Positions 1,231 through 14,719 of a DNA stretch of 16,180 bases are shown in pieces. The DNA is from a virus (taxonomy: Duplodnaviria; Heunggongvirae; Uroviricota; Caudoviricetes). A program made the position numbers and the translations under genes. The stretch spans positions 1 to 16,180 of the IMG/VR virus record IMGVR_UViG_2529292886_000014; one strand, 5' to 3'. Every line of letters begins with the position of its first letter. Within the stretch, counting starts at the first letter, position 1. The notes below the pieces were generated by a model, which did not search any database, was not told the DNA's origin, and was given only the letters and a program-made list of their open reading frames with translations.

Positions 1231-1594
1231 TTTTTTTCGTGTTTTTTCAGTATGCGCATACTGGATATGCGAACAGATACAACGTGCAACAATGAGCAAC
1301 AATGTGGAACAACTACGAACAAGAGGCGAAAAAGCGTACGGATTTATAAGTGGCTGATTTTTAATGTGTTGCTGGTTTTTTATACACTAGCGAATCACTC
1401 TTTAAAGAGCGAGAAAAAAGGCATGAAACAATATTTTATGCCTTTGTATTAACATGAATTTAAAATATTTTATTCTTACTGTTTCATTTTCTGTAAATCA
1501 TACATCCTCAGTATTTGCCATTCATCACTCTAGCGGGAACAATACGACACAATAAGACACCTGATGACTCTTTAAGAAACGAAAGGGGGCAATA

Positions 1595-3317: not shown

Positions 3318-3617
3318 ATGAGAACATATTTATCTGGCTTGACTGCCAGCGGTTATGCACACCCTAAAATTATCCCCGGCGCTATTTATCTGGATAAGAA
3401 CGGTAACAGAGTAACGGTAAAAGAACTGATGTTTGACCGTGTGTATTTTATTCGTGATGGCTATTCATTTCATAGTTCGCTGAACGTGGAGATCTTTATT
3501 AGCAGATTCCGGCGGGAAATCCCGACTTCCAGAAATAACCATGTGTCACGTGTGGATGTGGATAAAAAACTACAGGAACTGAAAAACATGATTGCCTCGT
3601 GGAGAGAGCAGAAATGA
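3318..3617 (+). CDS. Hypothetical protein (99 aa)
   Basis: ORF starting 7 nt after the previous stop. Its stop overlaps the primase start (ATGA at 3614-3617). No family recognised. Confidence 0.55.
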   Translation: MRTYLSGLTASGYAHPKIIPGAIYLDKNGNRVTVKELMFDRVYFIRDGYSFHSSLNVEIFISRFRREIPTSRNNHVSRVDVDKKLQELKNMIASWREQK

Positions 3618-5431
3618 AAAAAGCGCCAAATTTAAAACACCAGCCACGTGACAAAATGACGGAAGTCATCATTTTTGCGGGTAGTGATGCGTGGGCACAT
3701 GCGAAGCAGTGGCAGGAACAGGACGGGCGACTGGCTGGCGATAACGTGCCACCTGTCTGGCTTGGAGAGCAACAACTTGCCGAACTGGACAACCTGCAAA
3801 TCGTACCGGACGGACGCTATCGCGTGCGTCTCTACCAGGCGGGGTTATTGCGTCCTGGGCTTGTTAATACCATCGGGCAGAAACTGGCAGCGGCAGGTGT
3901 CAGGGATGCTGATTATTATCCTGAAGGAATGCACAGCCAGAAACGGGAGAACTGGCGCGAATATCTGGAACGTGAGCGGGGAGAGCTGGCGGAAAAGAAA
4001 AAGGTAGTTGAACTGCCTGTAAAGAAAAAAGAGCGGGTAAAAGACGATAACGCTTCATCACTGGCGCTTAACCAGATGGGAGCAAGTCAACGCGGCGAAG
4101 TTCTCCTGGCACATTATGGCGGGGAACTGGCGATTCATGCCGACTCTGACACTGTTCACCATTACAACGGCGTTATATGGGAGCCGGTTCAGGATAAAGA
4201 ATTACAGCGAGCTATGGCACAGATTTTCATTGATGCGGAGATCAGCTATTCGCAGAACGCCATTAAATCGGCGGTCGATACCATGAAGTTAAGTTTGCCT
4301 GTAATGGGGAATACAGCCCGTAACCTGATTGGATTCAGTAACGGGGTATTTGATACCAGAACAGGTAATTTTCGGGAGCATAACAAAAACGACTGGTTGT
4401 TAATTGCCAGTGAATTACCTTTCAGCCCACCAGCAGAGGGGGAAACGCTGGCAACACATGCGCCGAATTTCTGGAAGTGGTTACGCCGTTCGGTGGCTGA
4501 GAATGACCGCAAGGCGGATCGCGTACTGGCTGCATTATTCATGGTGCTGGCGAACCGGTACGACTGGCAGTTATTCATTGAGGTAACAGGTCCAGGGGGA
4601 AGTGGTAAAAGCGTGATGGCGGAGATTTGCACCATGCTGGCGGGTAAGGCCAACACAGTATCGGCAAGCATGAAGGCGCTGGAAGATGCAAGGGAACGCG
4701 CGTTAGTGGTTGGCTTTTCGCTGATTATCATGCCGGATATGACCCGCTACGCTGGTGATGGGGCAGGGATTAAGGCTATTACAGGCGGTGACAAGGTGGC
4801 AATTGACCCGAAACACAAAGCCCCCTACTCAACGCGTATTCCGGCAGTAGTGCTGGCGGTTAACAATAACGCCATGTCATTCAGTGACCGCAGCGGGGGG
4901 ATCTCACGTCGTCGGGTGATATTCAATTTTTCGGAAGTTGTACCGGAGAACGAACGCGATCCAATGCTGGCGGAAAAAATAGAAGGTGAGCTGGCGGTAG
5001 TGATTCGCCATCTGCTTACACGGTTTGCTGACCAGGACGAAGCCAGACGCCTGTTATATGAGCAGCAGAAATCTGAAGAAGCACTGGCGATAAAGCGAGA
5101 GGGGGATTCGCTGGTGGACTTCTGCGGCTATCTCATGGCGTCGGTAATGTGTGATGGCCTGTTAGTGGGTAATGCTGAAATTGTACCATTCAGCCCACGC
5201 AGGTATCTCTATCATGCCTATCTGGCTTATATGCGGGCACATGGGTTTGGTAAACCTGTAACACTGACGCGCTTCGGTAAAGATATGCCGGGGGCAATGG
5301 CGGAATATGGCAGGGAGTATATGAAACGGAAAACGAAGCACGGTTTGCGTTCAAACGTGACACTGACGGAGGAATCAGAAGACTGGATGCCATCATGTGT
5401 ATCGGTCACTAATGACGATAGCAAAAATTAA
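3614..5431 (+). CDS. P4 alpha-like primase-helicase (replication initiator)
   Basis: About 605 aa from the ATG at 3614 (SD GGAGAGAG at 3601-3608); the track ORF begins at an upstream GTG (3599). Walker A motif GPGGSGKS in the C-terminal half, consistent with the P4-family primase C-terminal NTPase domain (recalled). Immediately followed by TGTTCACC iterons, the sequence bound by P4 alpha. Confidence 0.85.
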   Translation: MKKAPNLKHQPRDKMTEVIIFAGSDAWAHAKQWQEQDGRLAGDNVPPVWLGEQQLAELDNLQIVPDGRYRVRLYQAGLLRPGLVNTIGQKLAAAGVRDADYYPEGMHSQKRENWREYLERERGELAEKKKVVELPVKKKERVKDDNASSLALNQMGASQRGEVLLAHYGGELAIHADSDTVHHYNGVIWEPVQDKELQRAMAQIFIDAEISYSQNAIKSAVDTMKLSLPVMGNTARNLIGFSNGVFDTRTGNFREHNKNDWLLIASELPFSPPAEGETLATHAPNFWKWLRRSVAENDRKADRVLAALFMVLANRYDWQLFIEVTGPGGSGKSVMAEICTMLAGKANTVSASMKALEDARERALVVGFSLIIMPDMTRYAGDGAGIKAITGGDKVAIDPKHKAPYSTRIPAVVLAVNNNAMSFSDRSGGISRRRVIFNFSEVVPENERDPMLAEKIEGELAVVIRHLLTRFADQDEARRLLYEQQKSEEALAIKREGDSLVDFCGYLMASVMCDGLLVGNAEIVPFSPRRYLYHAYLAYMRAHGFGKPVTLTRFGKDMPGAMAEYGREYMKRKTKHGLRSNVTLTEESEDWMPSCVSVTNDDSKN

Positions 5432-5442
5432 ACTTATGGAAT

Positions 5443-5667
5443 AACTGTTCACCACTGTTCACCCTGTCATAAATATCTTTTATATCAGTATATTATAGGG
5501 TGAACAGTTATTTATGAACTGTTCACCAAACTATTCACTGTTCACCTTTTTGATTGTTTATTGAGCTTCAAGGGTGAACAGTGGTGAACAGTTGGTGAAT
5601 AGTTTTTGTGAAACTGTTCACCCATTAACATTATGAATTAAAAGATAAAATATCAAAAGGTGAACAG
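5443..5667. repeat. Iteron array, putative origin of replication (P4 ori/crr-like)
   Basis: About 10 copies of the core TGTTCACC / GGTGAACA (often extended to AACTGTTCACC) in both orientations within 225 bp of AT-rich DNA: 5443-5453, 5454-5463, 5499-5509, 5517-5527, 5536-5546, 5573-5582, 5583-5593, 5594-5604 (degenerate), 5612-5622, 5659-5667. Confidence 0.75.
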
Positions 5668-5964: not shown

Positions 5965-6371
5965 CAGCACAGATAGCCGCTTACGGGCGGCTGGTGGACG
6001 ACCCGCAGGTAAAACAGACCAGCAAGGGCACACCGATGACGCTGGCGCGTATGGCGGTCCCCCCTCCGTGCAGCCAGGCAGATGACGGAACGGCGACGAT
6101 GTGGTTATCCGTCCTGGCATTTGGCAGACAGGCCGAAGCACTGGCAAGGCACCGCAAGGGTGAACTCCTGAGCGTGGCGGGTAACATGCAGATCAGCCAG
6201 TGGACCGGACAGAACGGGGAAACACTGCAGGGTTATCAGGTTATTGCAGACAGCGTAATCAGTGCCCGCGCGGCACGTCCTGGCGGGAACAGACGCAAAA
6301 CCACAGGCACACAGGGTAATCAGCCACCAGCGGGAGGCGATGACCCTTACGGTGACGGTATTCCGTTCTGA
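5961..6371 (+). CDS. ssb: Single-stranded DNA-binding protein (SSB-like)
   Basis: SD GGAGG at 5948-5952. OB-fold-like pattern G.L..DP.V...G...W..V..FG..AE.....RKG...G...W....G that parallels E. coli SSB, a Gly/Pro/Gln-rich linker, and the C-terminal tail ...DDPYGDGIPF (compare SSB ...DDDIPF). Confidence 0.75.
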   Translation: MTAQIAAYGRLVDDPQVKQTSKGTPMTLARMAVPPPCSQADDGTATMWLSVLAFGRQAEALARHRKGELLSVAGNMQISQWTGQNGETLQGYQVIADSVISARAARPGGNRRKTTGTQGNQPPAGGDDPYGDGIPF

Positions 6372-6381
6372 GGGGGTGACG

Positions 6382-6654
6382 ATGGTACATGACCGCATAG
6401 CGGAAGAACTCGAGGCGAAAGGCTTTTACCGGAGGGCGGCGGCGCGATGGGGTGAAGTCATGCAGCTGGTGGAGACAGACAAGGAACGGCATCACATCAC
6501 GATGCGACGGCTGGAATGTTGCAGGAAGGCACAGAGGCCACCGGAGCCACCGGATAATTACGGAGACCTGAAAAAGGCAGTCGATCGCACTTATGCCGAA
6601 ATGGGGATAGATGGTGCTGGTGATGAAATATGGCGCAATTACCAGGACAGCTAA
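6382..6654 (+). CDS. PerC-family-like small transcriptional regulator (90 aa)
   Basis: ATG at 6382 preceded by SD GAGGGGGTG. The N-terminal motif AEELEAKGFYRRAAARWGEVM resembles the PerC/Pch family signature as I recall it (unverified). The track ORF 6262..6654 overlaps ssb and is judged N-terminally over-extended. Confidence 0.5.
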   Translation: MVHDRIAEELEAKGFYRRAAARWGEVMQLVETDKERHHITMRRLECCRKAQRPPEPPDNYGDLKKAVDRTYAEMGIDGAGDEIWRNYQDS

Positions 6655-6660
6655 TCACAC

Positions 6661-6684
6661 AGCCGGAGAAATCCGGCTTTTTTT
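6661..6684 (+). terminator. Rho-independent terminator
   Basis: AGCCGGA-GAAA-TCCGGCT followed by TTTTTTT, directly after the stop at 6654. Confidence 0.7.
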
Positions 6685-6779: not shown

Positions 6780-7004
6780 ATGCCGATGAAATTTGATGAG
6801 ATATTAAAACAGCGTGATAAATACCATGCTGACAACATGGAGACGATGAGCATCAATGATTACCGCGCATTCCTGGAGACGGGCGCACTGATTGAAAAGG
6901 ATCAGCATGGTTTTGTTAGATGTGCTCTATCCGGTGAAATGCTGGCGGTAAATCCTGAACAGATAGATGCAATGATAGAATTTCTGAAAGGGATCAGGGA
7001 CTGA
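6780..7004 (+). CDS. Hypothetical small protein (74 aa) in a terminator-bracketed cassette
   Basis: ATG at 6780 preceded by SD GAGGAAAA. The track ORF begins at an upstream ATG (6702) with no SD. Flanked by the two near-identical terminators. Confidence 0.5.
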   Translation: MPMKFDEILKQRDKYHADNMETMSINDYRAFLETGALIEKDQHGFVRCALSGEMLAVNPEQIDAMIEFLKGIRD

Positions 7005-7013
7005 GCACGCATA

Positions 7014-7036
7014 CAGCCGGAGCAATCCGGCTTTTT
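7014..7036 (+). terminator. Rho-independent terminator (near-duplicate of 6661-6684)
   Basis: AGCCGGA-GCAA-TCCGGCT followed by TTTTTGTCATTTTTTG. Same stem as the upstream terminator, different loop. Confidence 0.7.
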
Positions 7037-7056
7037 GTCATTTTTTGTAAATTATT

Positions 7057-7083
7057 TGTTCGTGGTTGTTCCACGTTGTTCAC
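7057..7083. promoter_or_regulatory. Dyad element TTGTT-CGTGG-TTGTT-CCACG-TTGTT upstream of the head operon
   Basis: CGTGG (7061-7065) and CCACG (7071-7075) are reverse complements, separated and flanked by TTGTT. A half-copy TTGTTCCACGTTGTT recurs at 14581-14595. Confidence 0.35.
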
Positions 7084-7263
7084 TGACAGGATCGGCATAT
7101 TTTACCCGAACTGAATCATGATTATTCTCGCCCGTGGTGCCAGGACGCTGGGGCCATTTTTCCCGCCTGTTAATGTGTTCACCAATATTCATTCATTACC
7201 AGGCGGGAAAGCAATCGGTGCGTTTACTGATTTCCTTATGAAAAAGCGTTGAGTTTTTGCCGC

Positions 7264-7300
7264 GTCCTGGAGTTCCTTACTTAACCCCAGGACTTTTTTT
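7264..7300 (+). promoter_or_regulatory. Hairpin plus T-run abutting the capsid gene start (possible attenuator or RBS-sequestering structure)
   Basis: GTCCTGG (7264-7270) and CCAGGAC (7287-7293) form a 7-bp stem with a 16-nt loop, followed by TTTTTTT (7294-7300) and the capsid ATG at 7301. The only SD-like AGGA lies inside the right arm of the stem. Confidence 0.3.
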
Positions 7301-8458
7301 ATGCCGAGAATAATCGAATTACGCCAGCAGAAAACCGCCATTAAAAATCAGATGCGCGACATGCTGGAGAACGCGGAAAAAGAAAACCGCAGCCTTAACG
7401 ATGCAGAGGGCGCAAAATTTGACGAATTACGCGCTAAAGCTGAATCCCTCGATAAAGACATTTCCCGCCTTGAAGCCATTGCAGACGAAGAGCGCAGCAA
7501 GCCAGGTAAAAGCAGCCAGACCACTGACCCGGCAGAACTCCGCAACTACATCCTGACAGGTGAAACCCGCGCATTAAGTACAGGTGTCCCCGCTGATGGT
7601 GGTTATACCGTTATCCCTGAACTGAACACCGAAATCATGCGAATGCTGGCGGATGAGTCCACCATGCGCCGCATCTGTACCGTGAAAAAAATCAGCAGCA
7701 ACGAGTTTAAGCAGCTTGTTTCCGCTGGCGGTGCGGTCGTTAACCACGGTGAAGAGGGTAAGGCACGCGAACAGACCAGCACCCCGCAGATTAACGAGGT
7801 GAGCATTAAGCTGTATCCGGTCTATGCGTACCCGCGCACCACACAGGAAATCGTGGATTTTTCCGATGTGGACATCCTTTCATGGCTGACGGGCGAGATT
7901 GGCGACACCTTCACGGAAACCGAAGAAAGTGATCTGGTTGTGGGCGACGGTGACAAAAAAGCAAAAGGTTTTTTATCCGTACCCCGTGCAGAGAAGAACG
8001 ACAAAGAACGTGATTTCGGAACGTTGCAGGTTATCAAGCCCGTTGATGATCTTGCCTGGACATCTGCGGACCCGCTGATCGATCTGAAATTTGCATTACG
8101 TAAAAAATACCGCAAGAACGCGGTATGGGTGGTTAACTCCACGACGGCGGCAAAACTCCAGAAGGTGAAGAATGCGAACGGGGATTATATATGGCGTGAC
8201 CGTTTACAGGCGGGTGATCCTGACACATTGCTGGGCCTTCCGGTCGAATATCTGGAGTTTATGCCGGATAACGTTATTGCCCTGGGCGACTTTAAACGCG
8301 GTTACTACATCGTTGATCACGAAACAGGTGTTCGCACCAGACCGGACAACCTGACAGAACCAGGATTCATCAAAATTTTCACGCAAAAATATTTAGGCGG
8401 TGGCGTGGTGGATTCGAACGCGATCAAGATTCTGGAACTGCCACAGGACGACGATTAA
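7301..8458 (+). CDS. Major capsid protein, HK97 fold, with N-terminal coiled-coil delta/scaffold-like domain
   Basis: 385 aa. The N-terminal ~100 aa are charged and helical (RQQKTAIKNQMRDMLENAEKENRSLNDAEGAKFDELRAKAESLDKDISRLEAIADEE). The C-terminal part LLGLPVEYLEFMPDNVIALGDFKRGYYIVDHETGVRTRPDNLTEPGFIKIF fits the HK97-family capsid pattern (recalled). Confidence 0.9.
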   Translation: MPRIIELRQQKTAIKNQMRDMLENAEKENRSLNDAEGAKFDELRAKAESLDKDISRLEAIADEERSKPGKSSQTTDPAELRNYILTGETRALSTGVPADGGYTVIPELNTEIMRMLADESTMRRICTVKKISSNEFKQLVSAGGAVVNHGEEGKAREQTSTPQINEVSIKLYPVYAYPRTTQEIVDFSDVDILSWLTGEIGDTFTETEESDLVVGDGDKKAKGFLSVPRAEKNDKERDFGTLQVIKPVDDLAWTSADPLIDLKFALRKKYRKNAVWVVNSTTAAKLQKVKNANGDYIWRDRLQAGDPDTLLGLPVEYLEFMPDNVIALGDFKRGYYIVDHETGVRTRPDNLTEPGFIKIFTQKYLGGGVVDSNAIKILELPQDDD

Positions 8459-8468
8459 CAGCATACAG

Positions 8469-8497
8469 AAGGGGCTAAAAAGCCCCTTTAGTGTTTT
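8469..8497 (+). terminator. Intrinsic terminator/attenuator downstream of the capsid gene
   Basis: AAGGGGCT-AAAA-AGCCCCTT followed by the T-rich tail TAGTGTTTTATG, between the capsid stop (8458) and the protease start (8514). Confidence 0.55.
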
Positions 8498-9072: not shown

Positions 9073-10284
9073 ATGTGGCCTTTCAGAAGAAAAAAAGAGC
9101 AGCGCAGCATGACGCTTGATGAATTTATGGCGCTGGCTGGCACATCGAACACGGGGGCGGGTGAGTACGTATCATCGGGGACAGCGGAATCACTCCCCGC
9201 CGTCATGAACGCCGTCACGGTCATCTCTGAGGCGGTGGCTACTATGCCATGCTACCTGTACCTGGTACGCAATGAGAAGGGGAAGGAGGCCCGCGAGTGG
9301 CTTGATTCTCATCCGGTCGATCATATCCTCAACGAGCGCCCGAACGCATGGCAAACCCCCTACCAGTTTAAGCGAATGATGATCCGCCACTGCCTGTTAA
9401 ACGGTAATGCTTACGCGGTGATTCAGTGGGGGCGTGATGGTTTTCCGGCGGCTTTACATCCTTACCCGCCGCAGTCGGTGAACGTGGAGCAGACAGGAGA
9501 ACACAACTGGCGCTATTGCATCACTGACGCCTACACCGGAAACACCCGCAACTATTTACCGTGGGAAGTACTTCACCTTCGTTACTCCACGGATGACGGC
9601 TTTATGGGGCGCTCACCTGTAACCATCTGCCGCGAATCGCTGGGGCTTGGGCTGGCCCAACAACGCCACGGCGCGAGCGTGATGCGTGATGGCATGATGG
9701 CGGCAGGGGTTATCACGTCAGGCGAATGGCTGGACGGCGTGAAAGGCAAACAGGCATTAGCCGCACTGGAACGCTATAAAGGGGCCAAAAACGCCGGAAA
9801 AACGCCCATCCTTGAAGGGGGCATGAGTTACCAGCAGCTGGGCATGAGTAACCAGGACGCCGAATGGCTGGCCTCCCGTCGCTTCACCATTGAAGACATC
9901 GCCCGAATGTTCAACGTCTCGCCGATTTTTCTGCAGGAATACAGCAACAGCACCTACAGCAATTTCAGCGAGGCAAGCCGCGCATTTCTCACCATGACGA
10001 TGCGCCCGTGGCTGGCGAACTTTGAGCAGCAGATAAAAAACGCCTTGCTGGTGGTCTCGCCTGTACCTGGTATCCGGTATCAGGTGGAGTTTGACAGCGC
10101 GGACCTGTTACGGGCCACACCTGGCGAACGCTTTGCCACCTATGAGCGAGGCATCAAATCCGGTGTTATGTGCCCGAACGAAGCCCGCGAACGAGAAGGG
10201 TTGTCTCCGCGTGATGGTGGTGATGAGTTCAGCCAGGCATGGAAACAGGAAGTAAAAATCAGCGAGGGAGAAAAACCGGAATGA
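9073..10284 (+). CDS. Portal protein, HK97 family
   Basis: 403 aa. Motifs NERPNAWQTPYQF, LLNGNAYAVI, GRSPV, EDIARMFNVSPIFL and NEAREREGLSP...GGD follow the HK97-family portal pattern (recalled). Starts 2 nt after the protease stop. Confidence 0.85.
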   Translation: MWPFRRKKEQRSMTLDEFMALAGTSNTGAGEYVSSGTAESLPAVMNAVTVISEAVATMPCYLYLVRNEKGKEAREWLDSHPVDHILNERPNAWQTPYQFKRMMIRHCLLNGNAYAVIQWGRDGFPAALHPYPPQSVNVEQTGEHNWRYCITDAYTGNTRNYLPWEVLHLRYSTDDGFMGRSPVTICRESLGLGLAQQRHGASVMRDGMMAAGVITSGEWLDGVKGKQALAALERYKGAKNAGKTPILEGGMSYQQLGMSNQDAEWLASRRFTIEDIARMFNVSPIFLQEYSNSTYSNFSEASRAFLTMTMRPWLANFEQQIKNALLVVSPVPGIRYQVEFDSADLLRATPGERFATYERGIKSGVMCPNEAREREGLSPRDGGDEFSQAWKQEVKISEGEKPE

Positions 10285-14250: not shown

Positions 14251-14719
14251 GACCATGAAACTACGGAAACTACCCGTAGTTTGGGTAGTAAGAGTAACAC
14301 CCAGATTTTGGGGCTTACTCGTGATACCCAAATTTGGGGTATCGGTGGCAACCATAACGACTTTCGTTACGGTTGATGCTTTTACCCCATTGGGGGAAAG
14401 GTATTACGATAATCATAACACCTACCGAACAGGTAAAACCCACCAGCCTGATTAACAGTTAACCGGAAAAAAAACCAGGTGGCCCCGTTATGGGGATCCC
14501 CATATCGACATTAACGCCCCTCATGAATTGGTGTGCTTCCCCCTGGAAAGATTACCCGCCTGTATATTTCTTGTGTCTATTTGTTCCACGTTGTTTCATA
14601 CAGTGCACCGAACGGTGTAGTTAATGGTGTAGTTAATTTGCTGTTTTTAGCACTTTTTGTAGTGTGAGTTTTTTAATTAAATTAATGGGTTACTTTGCTG
14701 TGGTGATAAAAGGACATAT

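Follow-up and report, generated by a model that had tools for sequence, protein, structure and literature searches.

The capsid operon and the interval in front of it

The window, by which we mean the whole stretch of 16,180 nucleotides analysed here, is an EcCIEDL933-like capsid-forming PICI (cf-PICI), as judged by gene content and profile matches. Its genes follow the cf-PICI order, in which int, alpA and a gene for a D5-type primase lead to those for capsid, protease, portal, HNH, TerS and TerL, with connectors also encoded downstream of the capsid gene; the AlpA-family protein matches PF05930 (E = 5e-17). cf-PICIs are unusual among satellites in that they assemble and fill capsids of their own, for which phages of several species then supply the tails. 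Reportedly, they need no helper phage to make tail-less capsids filled with DNA (10.1101/2025.02.11.637232). How their packaging operon is turned on is so far undescribed, and no comparable control element has been reported for these satellites. We compared the region directly upstream of the capsid gene with more than 200 related loci. The following features run from the end of the upstream operon to the promoter, and are listed together with the gene that they precede.

7015-7037, + strand: intrinsic terminator at the end of the upstream (replication/regulatory) operon, AGCCGGAGCAATCCGGCT followed by a T-run
7043-7056, + strand: AT-rich box TTTTGTAAATTATT, at about -92 to -79 from the presumed transcription start, kept in diverged cf-PICI loci
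7056-7081, + strand: direct repeat of three TTGTTC units (period 10 bp) at -78 to -53, the probable operator of an island-encoded DNA-binding protein
7101-7106, + strand: -35 element TTTACC, conserved at a fixed distance from the first leader hairpin (P1)
7123-7128, + strand: -10 element TATTCT, after a 16-bp spacer, likewise conserved at a fixed distance from P1
7301-8458, + strand: HK97-type major capsid gene (Pfam Phage_capsid, E = 2e-61), which opens the packaging operon that the leader would control

In the terminator scan, the upstream terminator has a 7-bp stem with five GC pairs, followed by TTTTGTC. A further terminator at 6661-6678 is nearly its twin. The AT-rich box TTTTGTAAATTATT occurs only once in the window, and it is not a shared feature of the regions upstream of alpA in other loci (2 of 40).

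A probable capsid-operon promoter and its repeat array

Judged by its conservation, a sigma-70 promoter of the capsid operon, here called Pcap, sits between the TTGTTC repeats and P1. The -35 region, at -33 to -28 relative to P1, reads TTT(A/T)CT, its T positions being kept in 97-99% of 89 sequences and in 59-60 of the 61 sequences of a second set that was found via capsid homology alone. At -11 to -6, the -10 region of the 89 sequences has T in 100%, A in 100%, T in 93%, any base, T in 90% and T in 100%, and this pattern is replicated in the capsid-retrieved set (60, 60, 57, n, 53 and 61 of 61). Pcap therefore shows T1, A2 and T6 of a sigma-70 -10 element and a TTGACA-like -35 element, within the usual 16-18 bp of each other. 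As its match to the consensus is weak (8/12), the promoter scan missed it. From the spacing we infer that transcription starts at about 7134-7136. Where the upstream gene is divergent, as it is in some relatives, the capsid operon needs a promoter of its own. Pcap had been overlooked in the original prediction.

With P4/P2 Delta/Ogr late promoters, Pcap shares the setting of a satellite morphogenesis operon behind a weak promoter that needs activation. Unlike these, Pcap carries no TGT-N12-ACA site near -55; all six matches in the window lie outside 7000-7140, in agreement with the original prediction, which had also failed to find such a site. That prediction had further proposed a helper-encoded late activator as one possibility, for which we found no support, and that capsid production is timed by helper induction, which in a strict form is not supported either, given the reported helper-free formation of cf-PICI capsids (10.1101/2025.02.11.637232).

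The TTGTTC repeats recur elsewhere in the island: TTGTTC-N4-TTGTTC has 13 matches in the window where 1.9 are expected. A 23/25 copy of the repeat element lies upstream of alpA (1298-1322, - strand) and one of 15/15 near the island's right end (14581-14595); TTGTTC arrays occupy 1271-1323, 1536-1560 and 14571-14600. In related loci, T-rich conservation is in phase at -65/-64 and -55/-54. Sites of RDF (excisionase-type) proteins are direct repeats spaced one helical turn apart, and RDFs also regulate transcription (PMC7498355). The TTGTTC arrays have this layout, with helical-turn direct repeats at both att-proximal and promoter sites. Moreover, PICI lytic gene expression requires AlpA, which autoregulates (PMC11773190). 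The repeats thus probably bind an island-encoded activator, for which AlpA, an excisionase-type master regulator, would be the leading candidate, given a repeat layout typical of such regulators and the extra copies near alpA and at the right end. The link to AlpA is confined to the lineage of the window, as a second copy of the island's own repeats near alpA or att is lacking in other cf-PICIs. Pooled words are only weakly enriched upstream of alpA (106 vs 69), with AT-richness as a confounder, and repeat class correlates only loosely with AlpA clade. The TGTAAAT box, considered as a motif common to alpA promoters, was found in 2 of 40 loci (background 0.07 per region) and was discarded.

The original prediction had placed the activator site in a dyad, TTGTT-CGTGG-TTGTT-CCACG-TTGTT. 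The dyad is present, at 7056-7080 and thus one base to the left of where it had been put, but its palindromic symmetry is not conserved. A reading as a conserved palindrome or hairpin was rejected, since changes are one-sided and the spacers of the paralogous copy are non-complementary; in relatives the spacers read CCAGG, TCTGG, CGCGG or GTGG/GTGG, and it is the TTGTT(C) period that is kept instead. What stands of the proposed activator site is hence a direct-repeat array with extra copies near alpA and the right end, not the dyad, and AlpA as its ligand is a suggestion. Similar helical-turn direct repeats near att and promoters are used by phage 186 Apl, P2 Cox and P4 Vis (PMC7498355). These proteins, however, mostly repress at their promoters, whereas we propose that the cf-PICI arrays would serve activation.

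Predicted structure of the capsid leader

Downstream of Pcap, the predicted leader of about 167 nt consists of the hairpins P1, P2 and P3 followed by a terminator hairpin:

7134-7157, + strand: P1, GUGGU-G-CCAG-GACG-CUGG-G-GCCAU, at the 5' end of the presumed transcript, predicted dG -14.3 kcal/mol
7159-7210, + strand: P2, long central stem, 17 nt at 94% complementarity (7159-7175 / 7194-7210), with a variable loop
7213-7232, + strand: P3, small hairpin of type A leaders only, a predicted fold of dG -5.5 kcal/mol
7262-7270, + strand: 3' box GCGUCCUGG, putative partner of the P1 apex at 7140-7148 (antiterminator, ON) or, via 7264-7270, of 7287-7293 (terminator, OFF)
7264-7300, + strand: predicted intrinsic terminator and SD-sequestering hairpin, stem GTCCTGGAGTT 7264-7274 / AACCCCAGGAC 7283-7293, U7 at 7294-7300

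The region folds better than all of 200 shuffled sequences on either strand (z = -4.2 and -5.0). Across 42 sequences, 100% of the cells in P1 are paired, with three compensatory pairs, and both stems show further compensatory changes in a third lineage. In P2, 90% of cells are paired and 10 of 11 pairs have changed on both sides; for P1 and P2 together this is true of 13 of 20 pairs. P3, which is missing from types B and C, maintains its pairing in variants through G-U pairs. It is followed by an A/U-rich linker with a 4-codon mini-ORF (7238-7252), which has no SD and is also absent from types B and C. Two long inverted repeats, 7120-7130/7305-7315 and 7092-7099/7300-7307, show no covariation.

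In the leader hairpins G-U cells outnumber A-C cells by 20:3, which indicates plus-strand RNA as the paired form. This finding bears on the idea that the repeats act in DNA, as a cruciform, a packaging or recombination site or iterons, or that a leader peptide is translated from 7118-7252 or 7238-7252. The sequence TGTTCACC in the P2 loop (7176-7183) is indeed identical to nine origin iterons at 5446-5666, and a 44-aa ORF that includes a Pro-rich stretch begins with the ATG at 7118. Yet the loop iteron, to which the original prediction had drawn attention and which is present as described, occurs in the variant of the window only, while relatives carry GTGCTCGCC, so that we dismissed it as a functional element; the likely cos (HNH-terS interval) and ori (5446-5666) both lie outside the capsid leader. 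The 44-aa ORF was likewise rejected as a gene or leader peptide: 1-nt and 4-nt indels break it in close variants, its ATG is missing in several relatives and lies upstream of the presumed transcription start, and no conserved translated short ORF overlaps the alternative structures, as a leader-peptide attenuator would have it. Both the DNA-level and the peptide versions of this idea are, in our view, highly improbable.

The hairpin at 7264-7300 is G+C-rich and followed by a U-run, as is typical of intrinsic terminators, with a predicted dG of -14.1 kcal/mol and pair probabilities >0.99. The SD, AGGA at 7289-7292, lies inside its 3' arm, and the hairpin directly adjoins the capsid ATG at 7301. 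Twenty-nine type A variants keep the terminator with T7-T8, as does L060, a 69%-capsid relative, and a CC-to-UU variant maintains pairing in plus-strand RNA only. Folding predictions thus suggest that 7264-7300 terminates transcription and buries the SD. The sister leaders, types B and C, retain the promoter as well as P1 and the 3' box, and in them a hairpin without a U-run sequesters the SD.

Two mutually exclusive pairings of the 3' box

The inverted repeat CCAGGACGC (7140-7148) / GCGTCCTGG (7262-7270) is complementary at 9/9 positions, its 5' strand being the P1 apex, which would form one side of an alternative long-range helix. Complementarity between the apex and the 3' box holds in every lineage, and the core GACG:CGUC is paired in 30/30 sequences. 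Alignment column 18 has two partners, with each of which it is paired in 30/30 sequences: column 13 within P1 (AU, GC or CG) and column 156 of the 3' box (UA, CG or GC, depending on which of three lineages is considered). One P1 position that covaries with both of its partners in three lineages argues for two mutually exclusive folds. The covariation of P1 and the long-range helix amounts to about three lineage splits, P1 and the 3' box of type B being almost invariant.

Several elements of the original prediction are borne out by these comparisons. The 9-bp inverted repeat, the nested repeat (which had been given as 11 bp and extends to 17 nt at 94%) and the hairpin with T7 before the capsid ATG and AGGA in its stem are all present, and all are kept with compensatory changes in relatives. 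Its proposal that head-gene expression is gated by attenuation or RBS sequestration agrees with the SD-containing terminator, the competing 9-bp antiterminator, the covariation in three lineages and the SD-only hairpins of the sister leaders. As far as sequence comparison can tell, a view of the cf-PICI capsid leader as a switch combining attenuation and SD sequestration is supported.

The same observations weigh on a different role for AlpA, which might act like P. aeruginosa AlpA or lambda Q by loading onto RNA polymerase at a promoter further upstream and taking it past the terminators on the way, such that the operon is expressed mainly by antiterminated read-through and the RNA structures are just terminators. 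In P. aeruginosa, AlpA acts as an antiterminator on a terminator directly upstream of the first gene (PMC7969949). The island, too, has an AlpA-family gene and a terminator that ends at 7300, with the capsid ATG at 7301; AlpA overexpression serves to drive EcCIEDL933 reproduction, and three canonical co-oriented terminators (6661-6678, 7015-7032 and 7264-7300) stand in the co-directional gene array. With PalpB-tB of P. aeruginosa and PR'-tR' of lambda Q, the locus moreover shares the order of promoter, leader and terminator just before a lysis or late operon. However, the cf-PICI has no Q gene and no site resembling the AlpA-binding element between -35 and -10: GGGACG-N5-GGTA is absent from 7000-7140 and occurs 9 times in the window against 11.4 expected, although this motif is that of P. 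aeruginosa and may not be that of E. coli AlpA. In types B and C, which have no terminator, the promoter is nonetheless present together with P1 and the 3' box, and read-through is ruled out where the upstream gene is divergent. It would also leave the three-way covariation unexplained, and SD sequestration would outlast it; a conserved RNA switch and terminator-less sister leaders are foreign to the AlpA/Q mechanism. We therefore regard this role of AlpA as rather unlikely.

P1 and P2 could instead be constitutive elements. The HK022 put site consists of two adjacent stem-loops just after a promoter, in outline like P1 and P2. That likeness, the position of P1 at the presumed 5' end, a classic site of stabilising hairpins, and a long operon with a terminator-like hairpin after the capsid gene would fit a 5' mRNA stabiliser or put/EAR-like termination resistance, with the complementarity to the 3' box a by-product. 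Against this, compensatory changes in three lineages uphold precisely the complementarity of P1 apex and 3' box, and the 3' box is common to the terminator and the sequestering hairpin. A cis antiterminator right before a terminator would, besides, render the latter pointless. There is, we believe, only a small chance that P1 and P2 act constitutively.

Predicted energies indicate which of the two folds would prevail. For the window, OFF scores -60.9 and ON -55.5 kcal/mol, so that OFF is favoured by 5.4 kcal/mol, whereas in an RNA ending at 7272 or 7282 ON is the minimum-energy fold. Among 141 unique leaders, the median excess of ON over OFF is 6 to 9.5 kcal/mol, the window being at the favourable end; OFF is predicted as the minimum-energy fold in about 99% of them, and ON in 17-50% of the truncated RNAs, depending on leader type. 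Given that OFF is thermodynamically favoured, ON would have to be reached kinetically during transcription or via a factor. The antiterminator and the central stem are predicted to be nearly coaxial in type B, while in the window P2 is separated from the 3' strand by P3 and a 51-nt linker, giving a three-way junction.

A default fold that is the terminated one would also suit a trans-acting small RNA: in uninduced cells Pcap would give a transcript of about 167 nt, comparable to the short PR' transcripts of lambdoid prophages, with read-through into the capsid gene being secondary. Promoter, structured RNA and strong terminator with U7 make up a complete small-RNA gene. Types B and C, however, lack the terminator and hence yield no discrete small RNA, yet the elements are conserved in them. 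No target complementarity was found for such an RNA, and the covariance models of Rfam 15 gave no match at the gathering score for the window and five related loci, nor anything but sub-threshold noise at E up to 10. We thus think it very unlikely that a small RNA is the main product.

A proposed zipper-type attenuator in a phage satellite

Altogether, the explanation that we favour, and consider reasonably probable, is that the interval comprises an upstream terminator, a sigma-70 promoter with activator repeats, and a two-state attenuator of the zipper type of about 167 nt. An island-encoded activator, AlpA foremost, would bind the conserved AT-rich box and the TTGTTC repeats, the latter on one face of the helix, upstream of Pcap. 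In the OFF state P1, P2 and P3 would form and the 3' box (7262-7270) would pair downstream into the terminator hairpin with its U7, so that transcripts stop at the capsid start codon with the SD buried. In the ON state the P1 apex (7140-7148) would pair with the 3' box, removing the terminator and freeing the SD, a fold attained kinetically in the course of transcription or with the help of some factor.

By architecture, the closest known system is cATTpLS20, the zipper-type transcriptional attenuator of pLS20-family conjugative plasmids of Bacillus (PMC13401043, NAR 2026). Both leaders precede the first gene of a long mobile-element operon and have the same three parts in the same order: a stem-loop, a long central stem-loop and a terminator. 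In each, complementarity of the first stem-loop to the terminator 5' arm makes the folds mutually exclusive; this stem-loop is also the best conserved part of each leader, and neither has a known effector. The window shows the defining three-part order, P1-P2-terminator, and the complementarity of P1 to the terminator 5' arm. The two systems have no sequence relation, one belonging to a Bacillus plasmid and the other to the capsid operon of a Gram-negative phage satellite. They also differ in energetics, as the upstream hairpin is predicted at -14 kcal/mol in the cf-PICI against -6.4 in pLS20, and as pLS20 adopts the antiterminator by default, with similar energies for both folds, whereas for the cf-PICI the terminator fold is the predicted default. 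Furthermore, unlike pLS20, the cf-PICI leader has its SD within the terminator, and the platform of its sister lineages is purely translational. The design of the zipper-type attenuator would thereby extend from Gram-positive conjugative plasmids to Gram-negative phage satellites.

The leaders of Mu Com-mom and of the MS2 maturation gene are instances of translational control by alternative or delayed RNA folding. As in the cf-PICI, a hairpin closes the SD or start there and alternative pairing or upstream binding opens it; in contrast to Mu Com-mom, the cf-PICI has no identified Com-like protein or site, and its type A leader adds transcription termination.

Across leader types, one sensor appears to drive either termination or SD masking. 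A broader reading, which we put forward tentatively and hold to be possible rather than probable, is that the cf-PICI leader is an unrecognised family of cis-regulatory RNAs with a conserved sensor and interchangeable outputs, responding to a signal and timing helper-independent capsid production. The sensor would be P1, with its G-R-Y-G loop, together with the 3' box; as output, types A/A2 would use the terminator and types B/C SD sequestration; and the signal might be an island or host protein, an RNA, the transcription rate or the start site. A search elsewhere in the island for a trans-acting complement to the leader gave none that was convincing. As universal partners of the leader, an adjacent 74-aa ORF (phrog_1957; 38/61 loci by tblastn), PerC (3/61) and AlpA (46/61) were considered and rejected, none being universal.

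The analysis yields a conserved promoter with a repeat array, a two-state leader whose alternative pairing is backed by covariation, and the exact nucleotides at which mutations would bear on them. If the trigger of the leader were found, this would explain how capsid production is set without a helper and would give a handle for engineering PICI-based delivery particles. With the type A leader as query, a phage database returned no match; the type B leader matched three records, and at least one of these looks like a cf-PICI, namely an induced 'phage' of 16.5 kb.

Setting and conservation of the capsid leader

The 16.2-kb window represents an EcCIEDL933-type capsid-forming phage-inducible chromosomal island (cf-PICI) that adjoins phoQ, with the following gene order:

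1-1230, integrase
1595-1783, AlpA (PF05930)
3599-5431, D5-type primase
after the primase and before the region under study, SSB gene and PerC-family gene
7301-8458, HK97-type capsid gene, after the region under study
after the capsid gene, in order, prohead protease, portal, connectors, HNH, TerS and TerL

As judged from sequence comparison, the leader in front of the capsid gene appears to be a two-state attenuator of zipper type, conserved across Enterobacterales cf-PICIs. Zipper-type two-state attenuators are a known kind of regulator, here found in these islands, where such a leader was not annotated before; packaging-operon regulation is not described in the cf-PICI literature searched, and Rfam returned zero family matches.

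The observation behind the original prediction is real. The 9-bp inverted repeat is present as CCAGGACGC (7140-7148) and GCGTCCTGG (7262-7270), complementary at 9/9 positions. The repeat nested inside it was put at 11 bp, but really spans 17 nt with 94% complementarity (7159-7175 / 7194-7210), and TGTTCACC sits in its loop as described. The hairpin is there as well: its stem (7264-7274 / 7283-7293) holds the Shine-Dalgarno (SD) AGGA in the 3' arm, and T7 (7294-7300) and the capsid ATG (7301) come directly after it. Compared with shuffled sequence, either strand of the region folds much more stably (z = -4.2 and -5.0). We designate the leader hairpins P1 (7134-7157), P2 (7159-7210) and P3 (7213-7232), upstream of this terminator.

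Relatives were gathered by DNA similarity in E. coli genomes together with one DNA pattern search, and further by capsid homology in species genomes, viral contigs and metagenomes. Among 5426 complete E. coli genomes, 443 carry the 306-bp region, 359 of them almost in full; it always lies just upstream of 'phage major capsid protein'. Leaders sort into three main types: A, that of the window, with a diverged form A2 in the related locus L060 (capsid 69% identical); B, the most common, hosted by E. coli, Citrobacter, Erwinia and Rosenbergiella; and C, from metagenomes. Such a leader occurs in 75 of the 80 metagenomic loci, a set retrieved by capsid homology alone. Since a few capsid homologues of 67-72% identity have unrelated upstream leaders, for example in the Gilliamella loci L007/L062 (2700-3000) and in L215 (400-700), a P1-type leader is not obligatory for the capsid family. 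The L215 homologue has a TTG start. The immediate upstream neighbours of the control region are the PerC-family gene (6262-6654) and a 74-aa ORF (phrog_1957; 6780-7004); tblastn among 61 related loci finds them in 3 and 38 loci, respectively, so neither accompanies the leader universally.

Proposed two-state folding of the leader RNA

Paired cells make up 100% in P1 and 90% in P2, where 10/11 pairs have changed on both sides. Three compensatory pairs in P1 stem 2 separate type A from type B, and in type C, further, a G-C pair of P1 stem 1 has become A-U and an A-U pair of stem 2 has become C-G. With 20 G-U pairs against 3 A-C mismatches, it is the plus-strand RNA that carries the structure; in a CC-to-UU variant of the terminator 3' arm, too, pairing survives only in plus-strand RNA. 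A 44-codon ORF over P1 and P2 was rejected as not real, given 1-nt and 4-nt indels among close variants, an ATG missing from several relatives and an opening upstream of the inferred transcription start. A four-codon mini-ORF (AUG AAA AAG CGU UGA, 7238-7252) ends 9 nt before the segment 7262-7270, hereafter the 3' box; it reads MKNG-stop in other type A variants, lacks an SD and is absent from types B and C.

The 3' box can form a long-range 9-bp helix with the P1 apex (the putative antiterminator, ON) and is also the 5' arm of the terminator (OFF). The helix core, GACG loop:CGUC, is pairable in 30/30 sequences, and the sole loop changes, A to G and C to U, still permit G-U pairs. Column 18 of the alignment has two partners: column 13 in P1 (AU, GC or CG) and column 156 in the 3' box (UA, CG or GC). 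Across the three lineages, each of the two pairings holds in 100% of sequences. A position covarying in this double way marks helices that exclude each other, although for P1 and the long-range helix the covariation rests on about three lineage splits and is thus good rather than overwhelming.

For the full window leader, the predicted energy of P1, P2, P3 and terminator together is -60.9 kcal/mol, as against -55.5 kcal/mol for the alternative fold with 7140-7148:7262-7270. When the RNA ends at 7272 or 7282, before the terminator 3' arm is made, the alternative becomes the minimum-energy fold. Among 141 unique leaders OFF is the minimum-energy fold in ~99%; ON is less stable by a median of 6 to 9.5 kcal/mol, and in truncated RNA it is the preferred fold of just 17-50% of sequences, according to leader type. 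These predictions argue for a default OFF state, from which something would have to promote ON.

The terminator with T7-T8 is kept in 29/29 type A variants and in L060. Types B and C keep the same logic with a downstream hairpin that has no U-run and encloses the SD only, which suggests one sensor with two outputs: termination and SD masking in A/A2, SD masking alone in B/C. Altogether, the proposed attenuation and RBS sequestration are well supported by the two-partner covariation, the SD inside the terminator and the SD-enclosing hairpins of types B and C.

As to what promotes ON, the leader types differ in the arm of P1 stem 2 that the 3' box invades, the 5' arm in type A and the 3' arm in types B and C, which argues against a single strand-specific trans factor. 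No trans-acting complement of the leader was found in the island, and no protein gene is universally linked to it. More compatible with the arm difference would be loop-nucleated strand displacement racing the polymerase, a general destabilisation of P1, or a choice of start site that leaves stem 1 of P1 shorter.

Among known systems, the nearest in design comes from pLS20-family conjugative plasmids: their zipper-type attenuator combines a conserved upstream stem-loop, a long central stem-loop and, downstream, a terminator with a 5' arm complementary to the first of these (PMC13401043). The window leader has no sequence relation to it; its upstream hairpin is stronger, its predicted default is OFF, its SD lies inside the terminator, and translational variants exist among its relatives.

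Promoter and candidate activator

Aligning upstream sequences on the first base of P1 (89 non-redundant sequences) reveals what has the form of a textbook sigma-70 promoter at a fixed distance from P1: a -10 region (-11 to -6) with T 100%, A 100%, T 93%, n, T 90%, T 100%, a -35 region (-33 to -28) of TTT(A/T)CT with T at 97-99%, and a 16-bp spacer. The capsid-retrieved set repeats this signature (-10: 60, 60, 57, n, 53, 61 of 61; TTT: 59-60 of 61). In the window, the elements are:

7101-7106, -35 TTTACC
7123-7128, -10 TATTCT

We infer a transcription start at ~7134, the first base of P1. The promoter matches only 8/12 consensus positions, which is why a generic scan is blind to it and why it probably requires activation. 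An upstream operon terminator at 7015-7032 and a divergent neighbouring gene in some relatives fit with an autonomous promoter.

This terminator follows the 74-aa ORF and is nearly identical to that at 6661-6678 behind the PerC-family gene (AGCCGGAG(A/C)AATCCGGCT plus T-run), which suggests a duplicated terminator module. Two perfect inverted repeats link the promoter region to the capsid start codon region (7120-7130 / 7305-7315, 11 nt; 7092-7099 / 7300-7307, 8 nt); because the inferred start comes after both 5' arms, the repeats would need read-through RNA to act at all, and they show no compensatory changes among variants.

The original prediction proposed gating by an activator, citing a dyad. 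The string TTGTT-CGTGG-TTGTT-CCACG-TTGTT is present at 7056-7080, but is ruled out as a conserved palindrome: one arm is CCAGG, TCTGG or CGCGG in relatives, L060 carries GTGGTTGTTC twice in direct orientation, and a 23/25 paralogous copy in the same island (1298-1322, minus strand) has non-complementary spacers. Conserved instead is the TTGTT(C) word with a 10-bp period, centred near -75, -65 and -55, within phased T-rich conservation upstream of the promoter in all lineages. TTGTTC-N4-TTGTTC occurs 13 times in the window versus 1.9 expected, and GAACAA/TTGTTC arrays of 10-bp period recur at:

1271-1323, between int and alpA, upstream of alpA
1536-1560, across a promoter-like site immediately ahead of alpA
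14571-14600, near the island right end

These arrays are probable sites for an excisionase-type regulator; regulators of this class are known to use direct repeats spaced by one helical turn, both near att and at promoters (PMC7498355). AlpA is the PICI master regulator, needed for excision and lytic gene expression and activating its own gene (PMC11773190; 10.1101/2022.09.08.507074). From this role and the repeat pattern we infer that AlpA is the best candidate binder. An activator is thus plausible, on the strength of the phased repeats and shared arrays, yet unproven, and the palindrome does not stand. Other cf-PICIs have no second copy of their own repeat array, and repeat class corresponds only loosely to AlpA clade. 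A search ahead of alpA did not find the universal box TTTTGTAAATTATT (7043-7056).

A promoter-leader-terminator layout before the first gene is also found in the schemes of P. aeruginosa AlpA and lambda Q, but these leave the conserved RNA switch and the terminator-less sister leaders unexplained, and the AlpA-binding-element motif of P. aeruginosa has no match in 7000-7140. The absence of a TGT-N12-ACA site from the region was confirmed. Helper-timed capsid expression, also proposed, is not supported: cf-PICIs yield filled tail-less capsids without any helper phage (10.1101/2025.02.11.637232), and a helper-encoded late activator is therefore unlikely to be needed.

Further features of the island

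Downstream of alpA, a 385-aa ORF (1841-2998) has matches to PHROG 'transcriptional repressor' families over its C-terminal 90 residues (phrog_6196, E = 3e-54), while the remainder has no family match. Just past the primase lies an iteron field (5446-5666) with nine TGTTCACC copies in both orientations around an AT-rich core, probably the island replication origin; the window holds 11 copies versus 0.56 expected. A perfect tandem duplication of GGTGTAGTTAAT (14614-14637) adjoins the right junction with phoQ and possibly represents arm-type integrase sites. CCAGGAC/GTCCTGG occurs 11 times in the window and the full leader-repeat 9-mer once more per strand, in the primase and portal genes (e.g. 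3850-3858, 9852-9860), which may reflect codon or Dcm-site bias. A G+C-rich hairpin of 9 bp, trailed by T-rich sequence (8468-8489), comes directly after the stop codon of the capsid gene (8458) and is likely a partial terminator or 3' stabiliser, which would set capsid protein above protease and portal.
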